From Escherichia phage P896, in the sequence record OL451225.1: a stretch of DNA of 64,000 nucleotides, one strand, 5' to 3'. Both the position numbers and the translations under genes were made by a program. This document shows, piece by piece, positions 5,647-62,005 of the stretch (position 1 is its first letter; each line of letters starts with the position of its first letter). The notes below the pieces were generated by a model. The model was not told the origin of the DNA. It made no database searches and worked only from the letters and a program-made list of their open reading frames with translations.

Positions 5647-7521
5647 TTAATTGAGAAGGTGTACAAGTTTTTCCATAGACAAATCATAAGAGATTCTGTC
5701 ATATTTTTTCAAAAGCGAATTTGATTCGTCTATCTGGTCATTTTCTAAGATAGAGCATTCAACGAGAATGTATTTACCCATCGAACCCATCATGCCAGCT
5801 GTAGCACCATAGACTTTATCAATCTTAAGCATTGTTCCACGTGGAAGAATAACTTCGGTTTCAACGGACCAGTTTGCCAGGTCACCAGGAATAACTACCT
5901 TGATATTTTCTGCACCTTTGATAATCATACCAATCTTGATTGTAGGTTTCGCCGAACCAGTTGCACTTTTAATAGTTGCATCGATTGCCCCATCATCGAT
6001 ATCACTCGATAATGCATTTGGGTCAAGGTTCGCAGCGGTGTGGCCCATACGACCGAAAATATTTGGCGCCAGAGATGTACTCGCAAACATAGGAAGATAC
6101 ATCGTTTTATTTTTGATGGAATTAATTGCCATATCGGTTGGCATGACTTGAGCACGGTAGATGATAGTTCCTTTTGGAAGCTTAACACCGTTTTCAAATA
6201 CTTTATCCATATCGGAAATCATTTTGATTTCGCTTTCTTTTGCGTCAGCTTTCCCTAGCAGGAAATTATTGATTGCAGTATATTTTCCGCGAGTATATGC
6301 CTTAATTGCTTCGGCCTGGTCTTCAGTTATTTCAGGGTTGTCGGAGATATGAAATAATGGTTGGATGGCCTTGGTGTAAATTTCATCTGCGATAATACGA
6401 ATAGCTTCTTTAGTCTTATCTTCGCGCGCCCAGGTCCCCACAATGGAGTCGTCAAGCAACATATCAGCAACTCTGCGCAATGTATCAACAGGATTCTTTG
6501 AGGCCCGCAGGACGTTCGAAAACTCACTTATTTTGTGTTCCATGCCAACTTCTTTAAGAGCATTAAACACATCCATGGCTACACGAGTTTTTGTCTTATC
6601 TTCACCAACACCACCTTGTGCAACTAAATCAAAATAGTCTGCATACTCATCACCCGCACGGTCGATTACTTTTATTGAAGCTTTAGCTATCTGACTTTCT
6701 CTGGCATCATCTGCTGAATGCACTGCGCTACTGGTCGAGAGTTTTGTATAAATCTCTTTGTGCTCTGGTGAGAATTTAGCAAGGCCAGTTGGTTCGTTCC
6801 CCGAATACAATGCGTTAATAGCTGCGCGTTTAGAAAACTTGGTTTTAACAACAACTGCCTGGTCTGTACGTTTTTCTTCAACCTTTGCAATAGAGGCCGC
6901 AATAGCTTCATTCTTGGTAACAGTTTCGCCGGTGGCTTTGTCTACATAAACATCACCGACTTTCGATTCCACTTTTGTGTACAATTCGGTATTGATGCCA
7001 GGAATTCCGGCGATAGATTCAATTGGTTTGGATTTACGATAAATCAATACGTAAGTATGTTTACCCGTGTACTGATACATATCATCCAGAACTTTGAACT
7101 GACCGCCGGCACGGGCCATAATAAGCCGAGCAAGAACACGCTGAATAGTTCGTTCTTGTCCCTTCATTTTGCGGGTCGGGAAGCGGAACATAATTGCATC
7201 CATTTTCATCAGTTTTACTTGTTCGTAAACTACATCAAAAATGGATTTAATTGCTCCAATCGGGTTATCACCAAGACCACCTTTAAGAATAGCTGGAGTA
7301 CCGTTTGAATTTAATGACATCAAAATAACGTGTGCATACTTATCGCCAGTTTTGACCTGTTTAATAGCATCGCCTTCGGATGCGTAAGACACCATACGAG
7401 CAATAAGATTATCATTCCCCGGGACCTGGATATTCCAAATCTGTGGAACTTTTGACTTTGAAAGGTTAATGGCCGGGATATTAGATTCCCCTTCAAAAAC
7501 CTCTGACAATAATTCGGTCAT
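5647..7521 (-). CDS. Alt-family mono-ADP-ribosyltransferase paralog, copy 2
   Basis: 624 aa; N-terminal region homologous to copy 1 (KVPQ.W..VPG, LKGGLG, FRFP..KMKGQ, KVE.KVGDV); R/STS/E motifs (YRAQ, FASTSL, ETEVILPRGT). Confidence 0.8.
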   Translation of the reverse strand: MTELLSEVFEGESNIPAINLSKSKVPQIWNIQVPGNDNLIARMVSYASEGDAIKQVKTGDKYAHVILMSLNSNGTPAILKGGLGDNPIGAIKSIFDVVYEQVKLMKMDAIMFRFPTRKMKGQERTIQRVLARLIMARAGGQFKVLDDMYQYTGKHTYVLIYRKSKPIESIAGIPGINTELYTKVESKVGDVYVDKATGETVTKNEAIAASIAKVEEKRTDQAVVVKTKFSKRAAINALYSGNEPTGLAKFSPEHKEIYTKLSTSSAVHSADDARESQIAKASIKVIDRAGDEYADYFDLVAQGGVGEDKTKTRVAMDVFNALKEVGMEHKISEFSNVLRASKNPVDTLRRVADMLLDDSIVGTWAREDKTKEAIRIIADEIYTKAIQPLFHISDNPEITEDQAEAIKAYTRGKYTAINNFLLGKADAKESEIKMISDMDKVFENGVKLPKGTIIYRAQVMPTDMAINSIKNKTMYLPMFASTSLAPNIFGRMGHTAANLDPNALSSDIDDGAIDATIKSATGSAKPTIKIGMIIKGAENIKVVIPGDLANWSVETEVILPRGTMLKIDKVYGATAGMMGSMGKYILVECSILENDQIDESNSLLKKYDRISYDLSMEKLVHLLN

Positions 7522-55137: not shown

Positions 55138-55145
55138 TATTTATA
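55138..55145 (-). promoter_or_regulatory. T4 late promoter (TATAAATA) overlapping the gene 39 stop codon
   Basis: Exact TATAAATA on the minus strand, about 37 nt upstream of the ATG at 55100. Confidence 0.45.
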
Positions 55146-56973
55146 GCGTCGCATTCATCCAATCTTTACGCTGTTGGGAATCTTTACCGAATAGCATTTC
55201 GAACAGTTCTTTCCAGTTATCAGGCAATTGAACAACTTCGAATACCGGCTCGAGCAATACGCGTTTGTACTCAGAATCTTCCAAAGAACCAAGCCCCTTG
55301 ATATATCGGATGGTGTGCTTCGGAAGTTTATCCTTAGCTTCTTCATAGTCAGGAAGAGAATAGAACCATTCTTGTTTGTCTTTGAGCTGCGCAATAATAA
55401 CAGGAGTTTTCACAAAGCGAATTCGTCCTTCATGGAACAGCTCTGGCCAGTTACTGAAAAACGCCAATAACGATGGATAGATACTACCGACACCATCCAC
55501 ATCCGCATCTGTCATGATAGCAATGTTTCGGTAATTCATATTCTTGGCCGGTTGTCCAATCGTTAACCCAGTAATTGCACACACATCAAAGGCTTCAGCG
55601 TTCTTCATAACTTCAACAGCTTTCAGACCCCATGTGTTTTTAAACTTACCACGTAATGGATAAGCACCTTGCAATTCACGGTCGCGAACCTTAATAAATG
55701 GCCCTGTTGCAGAATCACCTTCGGTCAGGAACAGAGTCGTTTCCAACTTATCATTGCCCCATTCGTTGGCTTTGATATGCTTTTGTACCTTGGCCTTTGA
55801 AGCTTTCTTATTTGCTTTAGTCTCTGCTGCTTTCTCTGCAGCCAATTTACGGGCTAATGCAGCTTCAACAATCGGCATAATCAGCGGTTCATTTTTCAGA
55901 ATAGCTTGTGCGATTTTCTTGGCATCAATCTTGATGTGATTTCGAATTTCACCGGCCGGAGAAGTCAATCGCTCCTTAGTCTGGGAATCAAATCGCATAT
56001 TGCTCATATCGCGGATGAACATAAGCATGGTGAGGCATTCTTTAACTCGTGCCTTGGTCACCTCAATGCCTTTATATTTGCGCTTAATCGCTGGTTGAAG
56101 ATGTTCGCAGATATCATCCATAACACATTCAACGTGGTGCCCGCCATTCTTTGTATGAATGTTGTTGACATAAGTCAACTGACGAAAACCATCCGGGCTA
56201 GTCGTAAAGGCCATCGATACCGTATCAGTTTCCTGGATAACAACTTCGGTTCCAAATTGCTTGGAGAACTTCTTGAAGTTGCCATCAACCTTTTTACCAT
56301 TAAAGGTAAACTGAATATCCGGATAAACAACTGCAAGAGTCTGTAGACGGTCCAATGTAATATCCAGATAAATCTGGGACAGACTATTTTCTTCAAAGTG
56401 ACTAAAGTCTGGAATAAATATAACAGTCGTACCTTTACCCTTTGATTTCTTAGTCGACCAACATTTGTTTTCCATACCGTTGGAGCAGTTAACAGTGATT
56501 TCATTTGCACCATCAGCGGTAATCCCGGTGAACAATACAGAGAAAATATTAGTCAGAGAAGACCCGACGCCATTCATCCCGCCAGTTTTACGTTCAGCAT
56601 CATCGCCAAAGTTGCCACCTGCTTTTGGAATAGTCCATGCTGCAACAGGGCCAGGGATTTGTTCACCGTTTTGGTCTGTAACCATTGCTTGTGGAATACC
56701 ACGGCCATTATCAGAAACCGAAATCTGATTATCTTTAATTTGGACATCAATTTTATTGGCAAATTTAAAACTGGTGCGAATTGCTTCATCAACAGAGTTA
56801 TCGATAATTTCATCAATCAGTTTTACAATACCAGGAACATAGCTTACGGACTTATATTCACCAAACAAGAATCGCTCATGCGCTTCATTTGAACTGGAAC
56901 CAATATACATCCCGGAACGTTTTTTGATATGCTCGACGTCCGAGAGTACTTTAATTTCATTATTAATCATCAT
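55141..56973 (-). CDS. 39: DNA topoisomerase II large subunit (GyrB-like), single uninterrupted ORF covering the gene 39 + gene 60 equivalent
   Basis: 610 aa continuous ORF with GHKL ATPase motifs (...DNGRGIP..., GGMNGVGSS...) and a Toprim region; no separate gene 60 and no mobA between it and rIIA. Confidence 0.85.
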   Translation of the reverse strand: MMINNEIKVLSDVEHIKKRSGMYIGSSSNEAHERFLFGEYKSVSYVPGIVKLIDEIIDNSVDEAIRTSFKFANKIDVQIKDNQISVSDNGRGIPQAMVTDQNGEQIPGPVAAWTIPKAGGNFGDDAERKTGGMNGVGSSLTNIFSVLFTGITADGANEITVNCSNGMENKCWSTKKSKGKGTTVIFIPDFSHFEENSLSQIYLDITLDRLQTLAVVYPDIQFTFNGKKVDGNFKKFSKQFGTEVVIQETDTVSMAFTTSPDGFRQLTYVNNIHTKNGGHHVECVMDDICEHLQPAIKRKYKGIEVTKARVKECLTMLMFIRDMSNMRFDSQTKERLTSPAGEIRNHIKIDAKKIAQAILKNEPLIMPIVEAALARKLAAEKAAETKANKKASKAKVQKHIKANEWGNDKLETTLFLTEGDSATGPFIKVRDRELQGAYPLRGKFKNTWGLKAVEVMKNAEAFDVCAITGLTIGQPAKNMNYRNIAIMTDADVDGVGSIYPSLLAFFSNWPELFHEGRIRFVKTPVIIAQLKDKQEWFYSLPDYEEAKDKLPKHTIRYIKGLGSLEDSEYKRVLLEPVFEVVQLPDNWKELFEMLFGKDSQQRKDWMNATL

Positions 56974-57481: not shown

Positions 57482-57856
57482 TTATTCCTTAAAGTGTGCT
57501 TTCAACATCTGGTAAACGGTCCAGGCTTCAGAGTTATTAGAAATGGTGATTTTAGTCAAAGGGAATTCGCTTGGTTCAAATGCTTCATCAGCGTCTTCGC
57601 ATTCGTCTTCAGTATCGTCATCTTTTTCTTCTTCAAAGAAACGACGCTCATCTTCCTTTATGAATATTCTCTCCATTCCACCGGTCGAAAATTCTATCCG
57701 ATATACATCACCGCCTTCAATTCCGACTGGTCTAAATCCTTCACCATTGATTATAGCATCAGCTATATTATCATTATCAGAGCATAACAAACGAAATCTG
57801 CTTTCAGCAACATTATCTTTAAAATAATACCATTTATCAGTTTCAAATTTCAACAT
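57482..57856 (-). CDS. Hypothetical acidic protein (start at internal ATG)
   Basis: AAGGAG Shine-Dalgarno before MLKFETDKWYY...; acidic C-terminal stretch EEEKDDDTEDECEDADE. Confidence 0.45.
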   Translation of the reverse strand: MLKFETDKWYYFKDNVAESRFRLLCSDNDNIADAIINGEGFRPVGIEGGDVYRIEFSTGGMERIFIKEDERRFFEEEKDDDTEDECEDADEAFEPSEFPLTKITISNNSEAWTVYQMLKAHFKE

Positions 57857-58073
57857 GATAAGTCTCCTTCCAAAAATCTGTACCATCTTCTGATTCTTCG
57901 CGGAACAGTGCATAGCTAGGTAATTCCGCACCTTCATACGCATACACATAAATGATATCAGTGGTGCAAAGAAATTCATTGATGTTTTTCTTCACAATCA
58001 CTTTATCACTTTCAGCGGTTTCCCAGAACTCTTCAGCGGTCAGGGAAGTGGTCACACAATCTTCATTAAACAT
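57843..58073 (-). CDS. Hypothetical protein
   Basis: 76-aa acidic ORF. Confidence 0.45.
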   Translation of the reverse strand: MFNEDCVTTSLTAEEFWETAESDKVIVKKNINEFLCTTDIIYVYAYEGAELPSYALFREESEDGTDFWKETYHVEI

Positions 58074-58120
58074 AATATTCTCCTCATTGATAGGGCAAAT
58101 TACCCTATCATTTTTATAAT

Positions 58121-58612
58121 TTAGGCAAAATGAATATCAGCATACTCAACGATAAAGCTTTCAGGAACAACCTTAAAGGTTCCAAGGAACACAATATTAT
58201 ACAATTTAACCCCTTCTTCAACCCACTGGTCGGTGATGTAACCGGACATACTAGTGGTTTCATAAGTCGGACCATACATGCAATTGTATTCAAACGGTTT
58301 AGGTGAAACAAAAAAGACACCTTTGCCCAATTTCCATTTAAAATCAACCCCAACATGAGACTGGTCAATGGTTTCAACGTCTTCGGCCACAGGAGCGATG
58401 TACCCAGTAAATTCGGTTGATTCCAGGAATTTAGGATGCACATAAGCCAATTGAGTTTCAGTCTGACCATGTTTAGGAATAATACGCACTTTAACTTCTT
58501 TAATTCCGCCTACTAAATTAGTGCGAAGACTCACAACCTCAACAAAACGACCAGCCGCTTTAGAACGAGATTCTTTAGAAACACGTACAATATCACCAGC
58601 TTCAACTTTCAT
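58121..58612 (-). CDS. Hypothetical protein (MotB-sized, 163 aa), paralog of the next gene
   Basis: C-terminus YITDQWVEEGVKLYNIVFLGTFKVVPESFIVE is homologous to the C-terminus of 58689..59444; size and position resemble T4 motB. Confidence 0.45.
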   Translation of the reverse strand: MKVEAGDIVRVSKESRSKAAGRFVEVVSLRTNLVGGIKEVKVRIIPKHGQTETQLAYVHPKFLESTEFTGYIAPVAEDVETIDQSHVGVDFKWKLGKGVFFVSPKPFEYNCMYGPTYETTSMSGYITDQWVEEGVKLYNIVFLGTFKVVPESFIVEYADIHFA

Positions 58613-58654
58613 AATTTTCTCTCTTGGTTAATAAATTTATTCTCCAGTGGGGTC

Positions 58655-58686
58655 ATTATACTCTGACCCCAAGAGTTTGTACACAA
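58655..58686 (-). promoter_or_regulatory. T4 early-type promoter with a palindrome around the -10
   Basis: Minus strand GTGTACAAAC-N-GGGGTCAGAGTATAATGACCCCAC; near-identical to the promoter at 48058-48090. Confidence 0.5.
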
Positions 58687-58688
58687 AT

Positions 58689-59444
58689 TTAATTAAAAAT
58701 TTCAACAACCATGGAACGTGGTACAACAGTAAATTCACCAGCATGGACAACGTTCAGGAGTTCAACACCATCTTCAATCCACTGGTCTGTTACCCAACCA
58801 CAAATGGAACTATTAAATGGACGTTTGATTTGAACTGGTTTGCACAACAAGTCAATAGGGTCACCCAGTTCGCTAACTTCTTTCAGCAGTACAGATTCAC
58901 GCGGATAAAGGATAGCTTCAAGATTGTCACCTGATTCATTGACTGCAGTAAATTCAAAGATGCTTTGGTGATTGTGGTACTTAACTGTTTTAACGGTAAA
59001 TGGAGTAAATCCAAAAATACCTTTTAGTACACGCCAACCAGCATGCATTGCAACGGTCTTTCCAAACTGACTGGCATCTTCAATAAGCTGATAGGTTTTA
59101 CCAACTTTGATAGGAGTTTCTTCAACTTCTTTGAAGAGTTCAATCTCAGCTTCATAAACCATAATTTTTTCTACTTCATTTGTATCAAGGCGACGTGCAT
59201 GTAGAATATATGCTTTATCAAACCAGTTACTTTTTACAAAAGTTTCAACAATAAATTCACCTTCGCCTAAAGCATCAGTCAGAGTATTATACCCAGAAAC
59301 CATAGCTGCATTTTGAATAATAGGTTCAATCAGTTGATAAGTTTTGTTAATTTCAATAGTCATATTTTGTTTCTCAAGTTTTAATGGTTTAATTGGGCGA
59401 ACATACATACTTACAACATCAAAGTCAATAAATTCTGGTTTCAT
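58689..59444 (-). CDS. Hypothetical protein with internal duplication, paralog of 58121..58612
   Basis: 251 aa; two internal KTYQLIE-containing repeats; C-terminus WVTDQWIEDGVELLNVVHAGEFTVVPRSMVVE. Confidence 0.5.
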   Translation of the reverse strand: MKPEFIDFDVVSMYVRPIKPLKLEKQNMTIEINKTYQLIEPIIQNAAMVSGYNTLTDALGEGEFIVETFVKSNWFDKAYILHARRLDTNEVEKIMVYEAEIELFKEVEETPIKVGKTYQLIEDASQFGKTVAMHAGWRVLKGIFGFTPFTVKTVKYHNHQSIFEFTAVNESGDNLEAILYPRESVLLKEVSELGDPIDLLCKPVQIKRPFNSSICGWVTDQWIEDGVELLNVVHAGEFTVVPRSMVVEIFN

Positions 59445-59749
59445 TATGCAACCTTATTGAACATCGCCAGTTGATTAGGTTGTACAACCATAATTTCACG
59501 ACGACCTTTTGTATTTGACACGTTCAGGTAGATGCCTTTGTTCATGTCTGTTTCTTTATCATATACCGCAATTTTATTGACAGTAAAGATTTTACCACGA
59601 ATATTTGCAAATGCACATTCAAACGCTTTAGTCAGACCTGCTTCAGCAGCTTGAAGAGCGGACATTTCATATTGTTGGCCAATTTCAAAAGAAGTAATCA
59701 TTTTGTTGTCCTCATCAGTAGTTGATGAGATGATTATGTCTCTTTCCAT
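59444..59749 (-). CDS. Hypothetical protein
   Basis: 101-aa ORF. Confidence 0.5.
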   Translation of the reverse strand: MERDIIISSTTDEDNKMITSFEIGQQYEMSALQAAEAGLTKAFECAFANIRGKIFTVNKIAVYDKETDMNKGIYLNVSNTKGRREIMVVQPNQLAMFNKVA

Positions 59750-59768: not shown

Positions 59769-60452
59769 TTATCGTTTTTTCGGCAAAGATAATGGGTCTG
59801 CATCTTCTTCGGAAGGAACTTCATCTAAACCAAGGGCATAGCGCTGGGCATACTTCAACATCAAAATATCTTTCGCGCAGTCATGTACCGAATCGTGCGC
59901 CACGAATCCATCTAAAGTCCCCTTTGGTAATGGAGTTTCACACATTTTACGGACGAGTGACAGGGCTTCGATTGCTGTTCTGATATCTCGCTGGTTCCAG
60001 AATACAACCGGCTCCAGGTTATAGGTATTCAATTCGCGCTCAGGAATCCCCTCATTGCGCTGTAGGTCACGGATAAGGTCAACAAACAACGGGAAGTCAA
60101 AAGACATTCCACGACACCACATAAGGCTTTCGTATTTGTTAATTCCATTACCATTCAGATAATCAATTGCCTGTTGGATACCAGTTAAAGTATCAACATC
60201 TTGCGCAGAAGGGACCAGGTTAACACGTGCTTCTGCTGATTGCTTTTTCCACCAATCCATGGTTGTTGTATCGAACAGACGCTTACCTTTTTGGTATTCA
60301 AGGCTGAACTTGATACGTTTGCCGCGATTAACTAGGGTTTCGAATGATTCCACAATAGCAGGGTCAGATTCGAATGTAATCAGAGCCAGGTCAATAACGG
60401 CTCCCTTCGAGCCGTTTCCCAGAGTTTCAAAGTCAATAATAGCATCAATCAT
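59769..60452 (-). CDS. dexA: Exonuclease A (DEDD 3'-5' exonuclease)
   Basis: 227 aa, same as T4 DexA; N-terminal exo I motif IIDFETLG. Confidence 0.85.
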   Translation of the reverse strand: MIDAIIDFETLGNGSKGAVIDLALITFESDPAIVESFETLVNRGKRIKFSLEYQKGKRLFDTTTMDWWKKQSAEARVNLVPSAQDVDTLTGIQQAIDYLNGNGINKYESLMWCRGMSFDFPLFVDLIRDLQRNEGIPERELNTYNLEPVVFWNQRDIRTAIEALSLVRKMCETPLPKGTLDGFVAHDSVHDCAKDILMLKYAQRYALGLDEVPSEEDADPLSLPKKR

Positions 60453-60720
60453 CGCACATCTCTTTTAATTTCTGAATTTCACCAGCAACATAGTCGGAGA
60501 TAAAAATCCCTGGCTCTTCATTGTTAAAATATTCAATCGCGGCCATACGTTTCCGAATAAGATTCAGTTCCAGTAAAACGTAATTACCCTGCACGACGAT
60601 AGTCGGATTATCTTCGAAAAATTCAACCGCGTCCTGAATACCATAGATGAGATTATCTAAATCTTCTTTATGTACCTTATACATAATATGCGTCGTACCT
60701 CGCTCGTGTGATTCCAACAT
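60445..60720 (-). CDS. Hypothetical protein
   Basis: 91-aa ORF. Confidence 0.45.
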   Translation of the reverse strand: MLESHERGTTHIMYKVHKEDLDNLIYGIQDAVEFFEDNPTIVVQGNYVLLELNLIRKRMAAIEYFNNEEPGIFISDYVAGEIQKLKEMCDD

Positions 60721-62005
60721 AAGCTAACTGGCTCGCTAATGAAGCTTCGGCCATATGGATGCATGGAGTATAGATGAATGCTTTGTCCACTGAAACACCC
60801 TGTGCCTTATGGATTGTACTGACCGGAAGAGCACGAACTTTCAAGAAGGTCCGGCGAGCTTTCCAGAAGTCTTTCCATTCTGGACGTTTACCAGCGGCTT
60901 TCATCTGTTTGTATGTGTCAGCAACTTTAGCCAGGTATGCCTGGAATTTTGGTTGCTGGTCTTCTGGTAAAACTTTGATGCGGTCAACCTGATATTCTTC
61001 ATCTTCATCAATTGACTCAACTTCCAGGTCCCAGTAATTAATCACCAACTGGTGCGATTCGCCTTTACAACGGAGAATTGTGGAAGTGTATTTGCAATCC
61101 TTGATGCGAACCAACTGACCATTATTAAAAATGGTTTCGCTGAATTTCTTGCCTTCAAATTCCAGCTCTTTCATGTGTGGCTCTTGCATAACCAGGACTT
61201 CATACGGTAAAAATGCTTTATCTGTTTCATAGAGCTTGCGACGAATAATATTGTTCAGTTTTTCAACTGATTTATTCGTGTACGCATACATCCTGTTTTC
61301 CATCAACATATCAGCATCTTTTACAATACCGAAATAGTTTATCATGAAATCCTTTAAAGCGGTTTGTGAGGTAAAACCCTGCACACCATGACCATCATAC
61401 ATACAGTCGCGGAACCAACCACCATTGCGAATTTCTGTCGCCACTTCAATGATAGGAGCATTGCTTCGCATGACTTCAGTCAGATGAATCTGTTTGAACT
61501 TAGGATGCGTAAAGAATGGGCTTATCTTTTGTTGTGTGCTTCCTGGGTCAACTGGCTGCAGCTGGTGCATATCACCAATCCCAAGAATAGTACACCATTC
61601 AGGAACAGAGTTAAGAATAATCTTAAACAGAGACCCGTCATACATACTCGCTTCATCACAAACCAGAACATTACATTTTGACATATCAGGCATTTCGCGC
61701 TGTTCAAAAACGTTTTGGTCTTCATATGTGGTCGGGTTAATCTTCAAGATACTATGGATTGTATTCGCTGTTTGACCAGACAATTTAGATAAAACTTTTT
61801 TCGCCTGGTGAGTTGGTGCAGCAAGCACAATTCCCATAACTCCATTACGCACTAAATGGTCAATGACAAATTTTGTCAGAGTAGTTTTACCTGTACCAGC
61901 TGGACCATTCAGAGTGATACATTCCCCTGAACGTCGCTGAATAGCTTCAGTGATATAATCAAAAGCTTCTTTTTGTCCTGTGTTCAAGTCTTCAAATTTA
62001 ATCAT
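60677..62005 (-). CDS. dda: Dda DNA helicase (SF1B)
   Basis: 442 aa (T4 is 439 aa); Walker A LNGPAGTGKTT, Walker B VLVCDEASM, SF1 motifs. Confidence 0.9.
   Translation of the reverse strand: MIKFEDLNTGQKEAFDYITEAIQRRSGECITLNGPAGTGKTTLTKFVIDHLVRNGVMGIVLAAPTHQAKKVLSKLSGQTANTIHSILKINPTTYEDQNVFEQREMPDMSKCNVLVCDEASMYDGSLFKIILNSVPEWCTILGIGDMHQLQPVDPGSTQQKISPFFTHPKFKQIHLTEVMRSNAPIIEVATEIRNGGWFRDCMYDGHGVQGFTSQTALKDFMINYFGIVKDADMLMENRMYAYTNKSVEKLNNIIRRKLYETDKAFLPYEVLVMQEPHMKELEFEGKKFSETIFNNGQLVRIKDCKYTSTILRCKGESHQLVINYWDLEVESIDEDEEYQVDRIKVLPEDQQPKFQAYLAKVADTYKQMKAAGKRPEWKDFWKARRTFLKVRALPVSTIHKAQGVSVDKAFIYTPCIHMAEASLASQLAYVGITRARYDAYYV

Follow-up and report, generated by a model that had tools for sequence, protein, structure and literature searches.

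The MotB protein of phage T4 binds DNA tightly and without sequence preference, co-purifies with H-NS/StpA, remodels H-NS/StpA-DNA complexes, is toxic when overexpressed and confers a modest fitness gain on the phage (Patterson-West et al. 2018 and 2021; PMC6070864, PMC7827196). Its N-terminal domain was assigned as KOW, and the C-terminal barrel was predicted to be an OB fold of the cold-shock type with a capacity for nucleic-acid binding, DNA binding being allowed (PMC7827196). The C-terminal paralogy of MotB and MotB.1 was published in 2021 in the same study, where homologues of T4 MotB.1 appear as MotB.1 'Categories 2-4' and the MotB.1 protein of phage SP18 (YP_003934637), a close relative of the phage considered here, is listed in Table S4 (PMC7827196). 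Furthermore, an LSm-like N-terminal module shared by T4 MotB.1, GoF and Frd.2 was published in 2025; T4 deleted for motB.1 showed no phenotype in the laboratory, nor was a reporter RNA stabilised by MotB.1 (PMC12152347).

In the T4 reference, motB.1 (P39415 / NP_049627) contains a one-base frameshift reducing the product to 119 aa, as compared to 143 aa for the intact protein. This frameshift is absent from all other T4 records among those listed. The published T4 MotB.1 construct followed the frameshifted reference and is missing most of the C-terminal barrel.

The motB-motB.1 locus of phage P896

Within the window, i.e., the whole stretch of 64,000 nucleotides analyzed from Escherichia phage P896 (OL451225.1), two open reading frames of 163 aa (58121-58612) and 251 aa (58689-59444) on the minus strand are the motB-motB.1 pair of an SP18-like (Gaprivervirus) T4-type phage. 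The pair belongs to the early non-essential gene block reaching from gene 39 to dda. Approx. 97% DNA identity and the same gene order were observed in comparison to SP18 and phage 212, and the order dexA...motB.1-motB-cef-goF-39.2-39.1-39 in the window is that of T4, SP18, HY01 and JS98. Synteny of the locus was also found in an uncultured phage contig. The 163-aa frame is located between cef and motB.1, as is the annotated motB of SP18, T4 and JS98. Its immediate upstream neighbour, separated by a 76-nt spacer, is the 251-aa gene, whose equivalents carry the annotation motB.1 in SP18, JS98 and T4. The pair and both domain types have already been described, and near-identical proteins are present in public records. 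Features of the motB part of the locus and of the gene upstream of motB.1 are as follows:

58121..58612, minus strand: motB, 163 aa, orthologue of T4 MotB (PF17613, phrog_1671, identity to T4 MotB, position)
58415..58612, minus strand: MotB residues 1-66, basic KOW/SH3-like barrel (AF2 strands, charge, KOW assignment of T4 MotB in PMC7827196)
58343..58414, minus strand: MotB residues 67-90, acidic, partly disordered linker with ETIDQSHVGVDF at its end (pLDDT, charge)
58124..58342, minus strand: MotB residues 91-163, five-stranded C-terminal barrel common with MotB.1 (AF2, HHalign)
58649..58683, minus strand: early-promoter-like site for motB, TGTACA, 17 nt, TATAAT (promoter scan)
59444..59749, minus strand: orf101, candidate stand-alone module coupled to motB.1 (phrog_17795, HHalign)

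The Pfam family motB (PF17613) covers residues 1-162 of the 163-aa protein (175.8 bits against a cut-off of 25, E 7.7e-52), phrog_1671 was matched with E 2.4e-67, and the full-length alignment with T4 MotB (163 vs. 162 aa) showed 54% identity and 70% positives (E 2e-58). Position and Pfam/PHROG assignments agree on the motB locus. The initial annotation had proposed a MotB-like DNA-binding protein on the basis of size and position; the 163-aa frame is more than MotB-like, being the MotB orthologue itself.

In the AF2 model of P896 MotB, which is of moderate confidence (pLDDT 77, pTM 0.46), two five-stranded barrels (strands 8-11, 23-31, 37-44, 54-58 and 63-65, and strands 98-110, 116-132, 135-142, 145-150 and 154-157) are separated by a linker predicted to be disordered at residues 68-84 (pLDDT <50) and carrying a net charge of -6. 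The KOW domain (pI 10.0, net charge +5) is the only basic part of the protein, and this charge distribution argues for the KOW half as the site of MotB DNA binding. The P896 protein shares with T4 MotB the KOW plus barrel layout and a gene position upstream of cef, and each of the two genes has an early-promoter-like site of its own. Their overall charge differs, T4 MotB being basic (pI 9.2) and the P896 protein acidic (pI 5.8). As the orthologue of T4 MotB, the P896 protein would function as an early nucleoid-associated protein. The -10 box of the promoter-like site is enclosed by a 7-bp hairpin at 58649-58670 (-18.5 kcal/mol, z -3.6), the stem of which is completely (100%) paired in five phages, with compensatory changes in four of the seven pairs.

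Domain architecture of MotB.1

The 251-aa protein is covered over its full length by phrog_2333 (E 9e-79). Compared to intact T4 MotB.1, it is encoded at the same locus and ends in the same C-terminal barrel, in which WVTDQWIEDGVELLNVVHAG is identical; 45% identity was obtained over residues 112-251 (E 1e-34), corresponding to module B and the barrel. In contrast to the 143-aa T4 protein, P896 MotB.1 possesses an additional conserved leader and module A in front of this region. The predicted order is a conserved disordered leader, module A, module B and a MotB-type barrel, and both this architecture and the identity of the pair are considered practically certain, the AF2 model of MotB.1 being of moderate confidence (pLDDT 74, pTM 0.42):

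58689..59444, minus strand: motB.1, 251 aa, two-module MotB.1 of SP18/VR-type (Gaprivervirus) phages (phrog_2333, SP18 annotation, T4 MotB.1 identity)
59364..59444, minus strand: MotB.1 residues 1-27, conserved leader, predicted disordered, IDFDVVSMYVRPIKPL (pLDDT, invariant residues)
59121..59363, minus strand: MotB.1 residues 28-108, module A, predicted LSm/SH3-like small barrel (AF2, identity, phrog_622)
58869..59120, minus strand: MotB.1 residues 109-192, module B, paralogue of module A (AF2, identity, tblastn)
58692..58868, minus strand: MotB.1 residues 193-251, MotB-type C-terminal barrel, best-conserved part of MotB.1 (AF2, conservation, PF17613)

That the two proteins are paralogues via a common C-terminal domain, as noted initially, was confirmed by formal alignment. 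BLASTP aligned MotB residues 119-156 with MotB.1 residues 211-248 (53% identity over 38 aa, E 1e-12), and profile-profile comparison by HHalign extended the match to the whole barrel (MotB 95-159 vs. MotB.1 200-251; probability 98.2%, E 5e-14). PF17613 matches both proteins, in MotB.1 at residues 211-247, and both AF2 models show a C-terminal barrel with matching five-strand topology (strands 203-206, 214-224, 227-234, 237-242 and 246-248 in MotB.1). At the DNA level, similarity between the two genes is confined to the C-terminal motif (39 nt, 77% identity; 58205-58243 vs. 58761-58799). The MotB.1 barrel has 26 invariant columns among 25 sequences, and its WVTDQWIEDGVELLNVVH core is invariant in all 25 aligned homologues. 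Its pI is 4.5, as opposed to a mildly basic 8.6 for the barrel of T4 MotB.

The internal repeats of the 251-aa protein, recognized before by their KTYQLIE motif, were likewise substantiated. The motif occurs at residues 34-40 and 115-121, and the two repeats (approx. 28-108 and 109-192) align with 35% identity over 81 aa (E 1e-7) and a Smith-Waterman z-score of 12, a value reached by none of 300 shuffles. HHalign of the two module families yielded 97.7% (E 1e-11). Module A is predicted to be composed of strand 35-38, helix 46-59, strands 63-71, 78-85 and 91-97, a short helix (98-103) and strand 104-107; the same order of beta, alpha, three betas, short helix and beta recurs in module B (117-190), whose sequence can be aligned to the T4 MotB.1 N-terminal domain. 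With a net charge of -8, module A is highly acidic; it weakly matches the GoF-like family phrog_622 (E 0.003). In the leader (pLDDT <50), residues D7, D9, Y14 and P20 are invariant.

Screening at E-values up to 1 revealed no Pfam match to Sm/LSM, Hfq or SH3 in the modules, and residues 1-210 of MotB.1 lacked any Pfam match. With five predicted strands, a long helix linking the first strand to the second and a short one ahead of strand 5, the modules are nearer to an SH3-like layout, in contrast to Sm/Hfq proteins, in which the helix is N-terminal. No relative of either protein was found by sequence search of the PDB, MotB.1 giving chance-level matches only (E 0.027 and above). In structural comparison, both AF2 models came closest to Spt5 KOW repeats, the 53BP1 tandem Tudor, Agenet and SAWADEE domains, at E-values of 1e-4 to 1e-2, 8-17% identity and TM 0.1-0.5, i.e., weak matches indicating the generic small-barrel class only. 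Like MotB and MotB.1, these proteins are beads-on-string arrays of five-stranded barrels, the likeness being at fold level only. Small-barrel arrays such as Spt5 KOW repeats, tandem Tudor and Agenet domains serve as binding platforms.

The initial annotation could not match this architecture to a described protein. For the pair and both domain types this does not apply, as they are covered by PMC7827196 and PMC12152347; for the doubling of the module it stands. No description of the doubling was found, and PMC12152347 does not mention a duplication, two LSm modules or SP18. The presence of two copies of the small-barrel module, rather than one, in Gaprivervirus MotB.1 is the sole unreported feature of the pair.

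Origin and distribution of the modules

The single module of Tequatrovirus/Dhakavirus-type MotB.1 shares 65% identity with module A, as compared to only 33% between modules A and B. Module B shows 55% identity to the single module of P0095, a MotB.1 protein whose gene occupies the motB.1 position in an uncultured T4-like phage. Between classes, the modules diverge to 14-33% identity. A neighbour-joining tree of the modules had uninformative bootstraps at its deep nodes, and interpretation was based on the identity matrix together with three clades that had good support. No nucleotide-level repeat was detected between modules A and B. Since the 39-nt C-terminal motif is all that is left at the DNA level and nothing remains between the internal repeats, the duplications are old.

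Judged from these comparisons, modules A and B are old paralogues, either retained together or joined, and no recent tandem copy. An in-place tandem duplication of one module, occurring recently in the Gaprivervirus lineage, would account for their adjacency, equal length and common KTYQLIE start, and for the occurrence of module B, in cultured phages, exclusively within the two-module protein. However, the greater similarity of module A to its single-module counterpart in other phages than to module B, the 55% identity of module B to P0095 and the missing nucleotide repeat speak against such an event, which is considered very improbable.

Module B was found by tblastn in 33 phage records only, all of the SP18/VR type (Gaprivervirus) among the matches listed. 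Related phages possess one type-A, one type-B or one T4-type module, and relatives with a KOW-type MotB have none. In one further MotB.1 class (type C, 245-250 aa), an extra N-terminal domain of uncertain kind is present. JS98 MotB.1 was considered as a KOW type and rejected, as it has the ordinary leader-A-barrel form.

The KOW-type MotB proteins, represented by gp128 of Klebsiella phage Potts1 (Marfavirus) and P0133-P0140, share with MotB.1 the leader motif hDxDVxSxY..P..P and a MotB.1-type barrel containing GWVTDQWIEDG(V/I)ELLNVVH. Unlike MotB.1, they feature an N-terminal KOW domain, lack an LSm-like module, and their leader adjoins the barrel; KOW, leader motif and barrel are contiguous in Potts1 MotB and P0134-P0140. 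Potts1 encodes a single such gene at the locus, as opposed to the pair in P896. For the leader motif, five of nine KOW-type proteins scored above all 1800 shuffled controls, with a profile of a short motif built from only seven unique sequences and giving weak E-values. Because the leader directly precedes the barrel in the KOW-type MotB of these more distant phages, the MotB.1 modules look like insertions between leader motif and barrel. The exhaustive representative search yielded 19 clusters only. On inspection, P0130 (3446 aa) and P0141 (2552 aa) turned out to be long repetitive proteins and were discarded as repeat-inflated false positives.

A candidate stand-alone module is encoded by orf101, whose stop codon overlaps the motB.1 start codon by one base (TAATG), suggesting translational coupling. 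The protein probably comprises 85 aa starting from Met17 (59701): its family phrog_17795 has a length of 85 aa, four of only six close homologue clusters are of this length, the start codon at 59701 is preceded by GAGGA at a distance of 8 nt, and the ATG further upstream lies within reach of a promoter-like site (59761-59733) that overlaps it. HHalign against modules A+B was end to end for orf101 (weak, P 0.002) as well as for GoF (P 0.0017), and the type C N-terminal domain gave P 0.011; these values represent leads only, and pairwise scores for orf101, the type C domain and GoF as one module were non-significant. The N-terminal domains of GoF and Frd.2 fall into the same predicted small-barrel class as the MotB.1 modules, sequence similarity alone being non-significant. 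GoF differs from MotB.1 in its helical, acidic C-terminal part and the lack of a MotB barrel. A doubled module was also suspected in the 239-aa goF-position proteins of Potts1 and contig L007, but no significant internal repeat was found there (z 0.6 and -0.6).

Possible functions of MotB.1

As the most likely mechanism, it is tentatively proposed that MotB.1 acts as a modular adaptor and not as a second DNA-coating protein. The near-invariant acidic, aromatic barrel would anchor MotB.1 to a conserved ligand also recognized by the MotB barrel; candidates for this ligand are the H-NS/DNA nucleoprotein and, via barrel-barrel pairing, MotB itself. The fast-evolving modules would add one or two RNA- or protein-binding surfaces. 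The contrast between the 26 invariant barrel columns and the divergence of the modules between classes is in line with this proposal, which is regarded as possible, at somewhat less than even chances. The negative net charge of MotB.1, with basic character in MotB limited to the KOW part, and the small-barrel arrays among the structural neighbours also favour it. The lack of a phenotype after T4 motB.1 deletion and the negative reporter result obtained with the truncated T4 protein speak against it. The overall explanation of the pair, combining identity, architecture, module history and adaptor mechanism, is considered likely.

The suggested MotB-like DNA binding is not supported for MotB.1, since the protein is acidic (net charge -12, pI 5.0) and has no basic KOW domain. 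If MotB.1 were a second non-specific DNA-binding nucleoid protein, the common barrel would have to be the DNA-binding domain. Its homology to the barrel of DNA-binding MotB, the predicted cold-shock-type OB fold with possible nucleic-acid binding (PMC7827196) and the frequent naming of MotB.1 as "transcriptional regulator" in database records point in this direction, and the OB-fold assignment together with the pI of the T4 MotB barrel leaves DNA binding by the barrel some plausibility. However, the P896 MotB.1 barrel is acidic as well, the sole basic part of P896 MotB has no counterpart in MotB.1, no cold-shock or S1 domain was matched by Pfam at E-values up to 1, and the fold neighbours, weak as these matches are, belong to the Tudor, KOW and SAWADEE barrels and not to the OB folds. 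A DNA-binding role is accordingly judged quite unlikely. An Hfq-like RNA chaperone, in which the doubled LSm-like modules would form a bivalent RNA binder, would fit the LSm-like fold assigned to the N-terminal domains of T4 MotB.1, GoF and Frd.2, the RNA-stabilizing GoF(D25Y) mutant (PMC12152347) and the same predicted barrel in modules A and B. Yet the RNA reporter assay showed little effect of either T4 MotB.1 or wild-type GoF, and AlphaFold3 multimer models of T4 MotB.1 yielded no confident ring (PMC12152347). Moreover, the missing Sm/LSM matches, the placement of the helix and the acidity of module A are at odds with an Hfq-like protein, and this role is judged rather unlikely.

A more specific version of the adaptor proposal would regard the common barrel as a protein-recognition or pairing module for H-NS/StpA or the partner paralogue, and MotB.1 as a DNA-free decoy/adaptor that recruits RNA or proteins to the MotB/H-NS nucleoprotein via a swappable cassette of 0-2 small-barrel modules, with the leader as a short docking motif. 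This version is speculative and improbable as it stands; if it were true, the motB locus would provide the phage with a modular set of tools to counter xenogeneic silencing.

As a discovery, the pair carries little weight, and its value for work on T4 early genes is modest. The frameshift of the reference truncates T4 MotB.1 in its most conserved domain, and negative results published with the 13.8-kDa T4 MotB.1 may therefore misrepresent the native 143-aa protein. Furthermore, MotB.1 is a mosaic of a constant barrel and a short conserved motif with a variable number and type of small-barrel modules, and functions determined for the single-module form of T4 may, given this mosaic architecture, not transfer directly to other members of the family.

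The motB locus and its two proteins

The window originates from a T4-type phage, and the 3.1 kb around the motB pair share 97% identity with Escherichia phage 212 and Shigella phage SP18 (Gaprivervirus), with all genes matching. The T4 gene order dda...dexA-motB.2-motB.1-motB-cef-goF-39.2-39.1-39 is matched, with a 101-aa ORF (orf101) occupying the place of T4 motB.2:

60677-62005, minus strand, dda
60445-60720, minus strand, 91-aa ORF
59769-60452, minus strand, dexA
59444-59749, minus strand, orf101
58689-59444, minus strand, 251-aa ORF (MotB.1), part of the finding
58121-58612, minus strand, 163-aa ORF (MotB), part of the finding
57843-58073, minus strand, cef
end at 57482, minus strand, goF-like gene
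downstream of the goF-like gene, minus strand, 39.2, 39.1 and gene 39

A match to the Pfam family motB (PF17613) spans the whole 163-aa protein (E 7.7e-52), which also shows 54% full-length identity to T4 MotB and is the MotB orthologue. Within the 251-aa protein, the PF17613 match was restricted to residues 211-247; PHROG 2333 matched along the whole length, the SP18 counterpart is annotated as motB.1, and intact T4 MotB.1 is 45% identical to residues 112-251. This protein is MotB.1. The common C-terminus noticed in the initial annotation was confirmed by pairwise alignment (53% identity over 38 aa, E 1e-12) and by profile-profile comparison of 39 MotB with 25 MotB.1 sequences, aligning MotB 95-159 with MotB.1 200-251 (probability 98.2%, E 5e-14). 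The annotation also placed the locus broadly correctly as MotB-like; its remark that the duplication architecture could not be matched to a described protein largely does not hold, since the paralogue pair is already published. Patterson-West et al. (2021, PMC7827196) described the common C-terminal domain and a possible origin by gene duplication, grouped MotB.1-like proteins into categories by differing N-terminal regions, and included the SP18 protein YP_003934637 in Table S4.

The motB.1 ATG overlaps the orf101 stop codon by one base (TAATG), which suggests translational coupling. The 76 nt separating motB.1 from motB contain an early-promoter-like site (TGTACA, 17 nt, TATAAT; 58683-58655), whose -10 TATAAT is enclosed by a 7-bp hairpin (GGGGTCA...TGACCCC, 58649-58670, minus strand; fold z -3.6). 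The stem is 100% paired in the window phage, T4, HY01, JS98 and an uncultured phage, with compensatory changes in four of seven pairs; it could mark where the transcript ends or is processed, or serve to occlude the promoter. For orf101, only six close homologue clusters were found. Translation probably starts at Met17 (59701), for a product of 85 aa; this ATG has GAGGA 8 nt before it, and the first ATG is overlapped by a promoter-like site (59761-59733).

Further observations concern neighboring genes. The mechanically called goF-like ORF (165 aa, 57482-57979, minus strand) overlaps cef by approximately 135 nt; SP18 goF is annotated at 124 aa, corresponding to a start at Met42 (MLKFETDKWYYF, ~57856). 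The goF-like product matches PHROG 622, which MotB.1 residues 28-109 also match weakly. An 8-bp palindromic stem (TGATAGGG...CCCTATCA, 58088-58110) lies between motB and cef, with a terminator-like flag on the plus (non-coding) strand. Gene 39 (55141-56973, minus strand) encodes 610 aa, compared with T4 gene 39 annotated at 1551 nt (~516 aa). In T4, the topoisomerase subunit is split between genes 39 and 60; it therefore appears to be unsplit in the window phage.

Domain architecture of MotB.1 and age of the repeat

AlphaFold2 models were obtained for MotB.1 (25-sequence alignment, pLDDT 74, pTM 0.42) and MotB (39 sequences, pLDDT 77).

Predicted structural elements
MotB.1 1-27: disordered (leader)
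MotB.1 35-107: strand, long helix, three strands, short helix, strand (module A)
MotB.1 117-190: the same order of elements, repeated (module B)
MotB.1 203-248: five-stranded barrel
MotB 8-65: five-stranded barrel
MotB 68-84: disordered linker
MotB 98-157: five-stranded barrel, first hairpin longer than that of MotB.1

PDB neighbors of both models identified by Foldseek were small-barrel arrays with weak scores (E 1e-4 to 1e-2), namely Spt5 KOW repeats, 53BP1 tandem Tudor, Agenet, SETDB1 Tudor and SAWADEE. Viral-model neighbors comprised MotB.1 relatives, including T4 P39415, and many uncharacterized phage proteins of 220-260 aa at ~15% identity.

The leader (IDFDVVSMYVRPIKPL) is conserved though predicted to be disordered, with D7, D9, Y14 and P20 invariant. 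The Klebsiella phage Potts1 (Marfavirus) encodes a single MotB-like protein at this locus, consisting, in this order, of a KOW domain, YVTDTDVASAYTCPVLPLV and DPTDLLCRAV...GWVTDQWIEDGIELLNVVH; metagenomic clusters P0134-P0140 share this layout. With a leader profile, five of nine KOW-type proteins scored higher than every one of 1800 shuffled controls, and the match always lay immediately before the barrel. The leader belongs together with the barrel: both are contiguous in the KOW-type form, and in MotB.1 the small-barrel modules separate the two or, in some variants, precede the leader motif.

Architectures of MotB.1 relatives drawn from homologue searches
Leader-A-barrel, ~180 aa: JS98 and PP01-type proteins, by far the most frequent length in the homologue clusters
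Leader-B-barrel, 165 aa: P0095, uncultured phage
T4-type module-barrel, 143 aa: T4
T4-type module-leader-barrel, 164 aa: P0131
Extra N-terminal domain-leader-A-barrel, 245-250 aa: metagenome clusters P0008, P0009, P0021, P0047
Leader-A-B-barrel, 251 aa: window
Fused motB.2 N-terminus and last 29 barrel residues, 43 aa: P0143, deletion remnant

In many Tequatrovirus genomes, motB.1 is reduced to its last 50-60 codons, and phage records such as RB51 motB.1, JS09 and APCEc01 match residues 195-251 alone. In P0143, the motB.2 N-terminus (MKIYRVESSFSIL) is joined to the motB.1 C-terminus, which points to a deletion between these genes; this form may correspond to a 29-aa peptide placed in 'Category 3' by PMC7827196.

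The internal repeat around KTYQLIE, present twice, was substantiated: residues ~28-108 and ~109-192 share 35% identity over 81 aa (E 1e-7; z = 12 versus shuffled sequences), and the module families matched by HHalign (97.7%, E 1e-11). No nucleotide-level similarity between the two repeats was found, and of the C-terminal motif only a 39-nt stretch is still recognizable in the DNA; hence both duplications are old. A recent tandem origin is very improbable. Module A shares 65% identity with the sole module of cluster P0023 but 33% with module B; module B shares 55% with P0095, and the T4 module ~22% with each. The P0095 gene lies directly upstream of motB, cef and 39.2 in its contig, and all 33 phage records listed by tblastn for module B are SP18/VR-type phages or close relatives. 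Modules A and B diverged before the Gaprivervirus lineage, and the 251-aa form either retains the ancestral state or results from recombinational fusion. Furthermore, orf101 may be a stand-alone module copy: its terminal patterns (FEIGQQYEM ... IMVVQPNQLAMFNKV) resemble both modules, and HHalign aligned it with A+B over the full length, though weakly (P 0.002). No published report of a doubled module in MotB.1 was found; this feature, the leader-barrel relationship and the charge argument below are small additions to the published pair.

A sequence error in the T4 reference motB.1

The most useful by-product of the analysis is a sequence error in T4 reference motB.1. NC_000866.4 / AF158101.6 contains an extra G (TGGATTGGAAGATGG versus TGGATTGAAGATGG in other records; L001:2850-2870 of the NC_000866.4 segment, NC_000866.4 ~7290-7310), which stops the ORF at 119 aa (13.8 kDa, P39415) inside the conserved WVTDQWIEDG. 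Thirteen other listed records (11 T4/T4T, RB55 and RB59) carry a motB.1 one base shorter; the one translated, MT984581, encodes an intact 143-aa MotB.1 (L004:146-577 of its segment). The 2025 study describes a 13.8-kDa MotB.1, matching in mass the 119-aa product of the reference sequence (UniProt P39415); its constructs came from gene synthesis, and its amber-mutant fragment followed NC_000866.4 coordinates (PMC12152347). The tested protein therefore probably lacked most of the barrel.

Proposed functions of MotB and MotB.1

MotB of the window phage would, by orthology, function as in T4, where this early protein shows tight, non-specific DNA binding, co-purifies with H-NS/StpA, changes H-NS footprints, relieves repression of part of the H-NS regulon and increases fitness (PMC6070864, PMC7827196). 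The window MotB is acidic (net -3, pI 5.8) and T4 MotB basic (net +6, pI 9.2), with the KOW half alone basic in both (pI 10 in the window protein). This acidity may affect DNA-binding strength.

The initial annotation's suggestion of a MotB-like DNA-binding protein is not supported for the 251-aa ORF. For MotB.1 (net -12, pI 5.0; module A net -8, barrel net -4), MotB-like DNA coating is unlikely given these charges and the confinement of basic character in MotB to its KOW half, and a role as a second DNA-binding protein is accordingly rated improbable, even with the shared barrel. An RNA chaperone, conceivable for LSm-like modules, is also doubtful, if somewhat less so: T4 MotB.1 had little effect on reporter RNA (PMC12152347). 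T4 motB.1 amber and deletion mutants grew normally (PMC12152347).

The barrel contains 26 invariant positions among 25 sequences and the module classes differ by 67-86%, a pattern consistent with one constant anchor carrying variable binding surfaces. In the favored but tentative reading, MotB.1 could be an adaptor, whose barrel would bind the conserved ligand also recognized by the MotB barrel, either H-NS/DNA nucleoprotein or MotB itself, and whose modules would bind RNA or protein.
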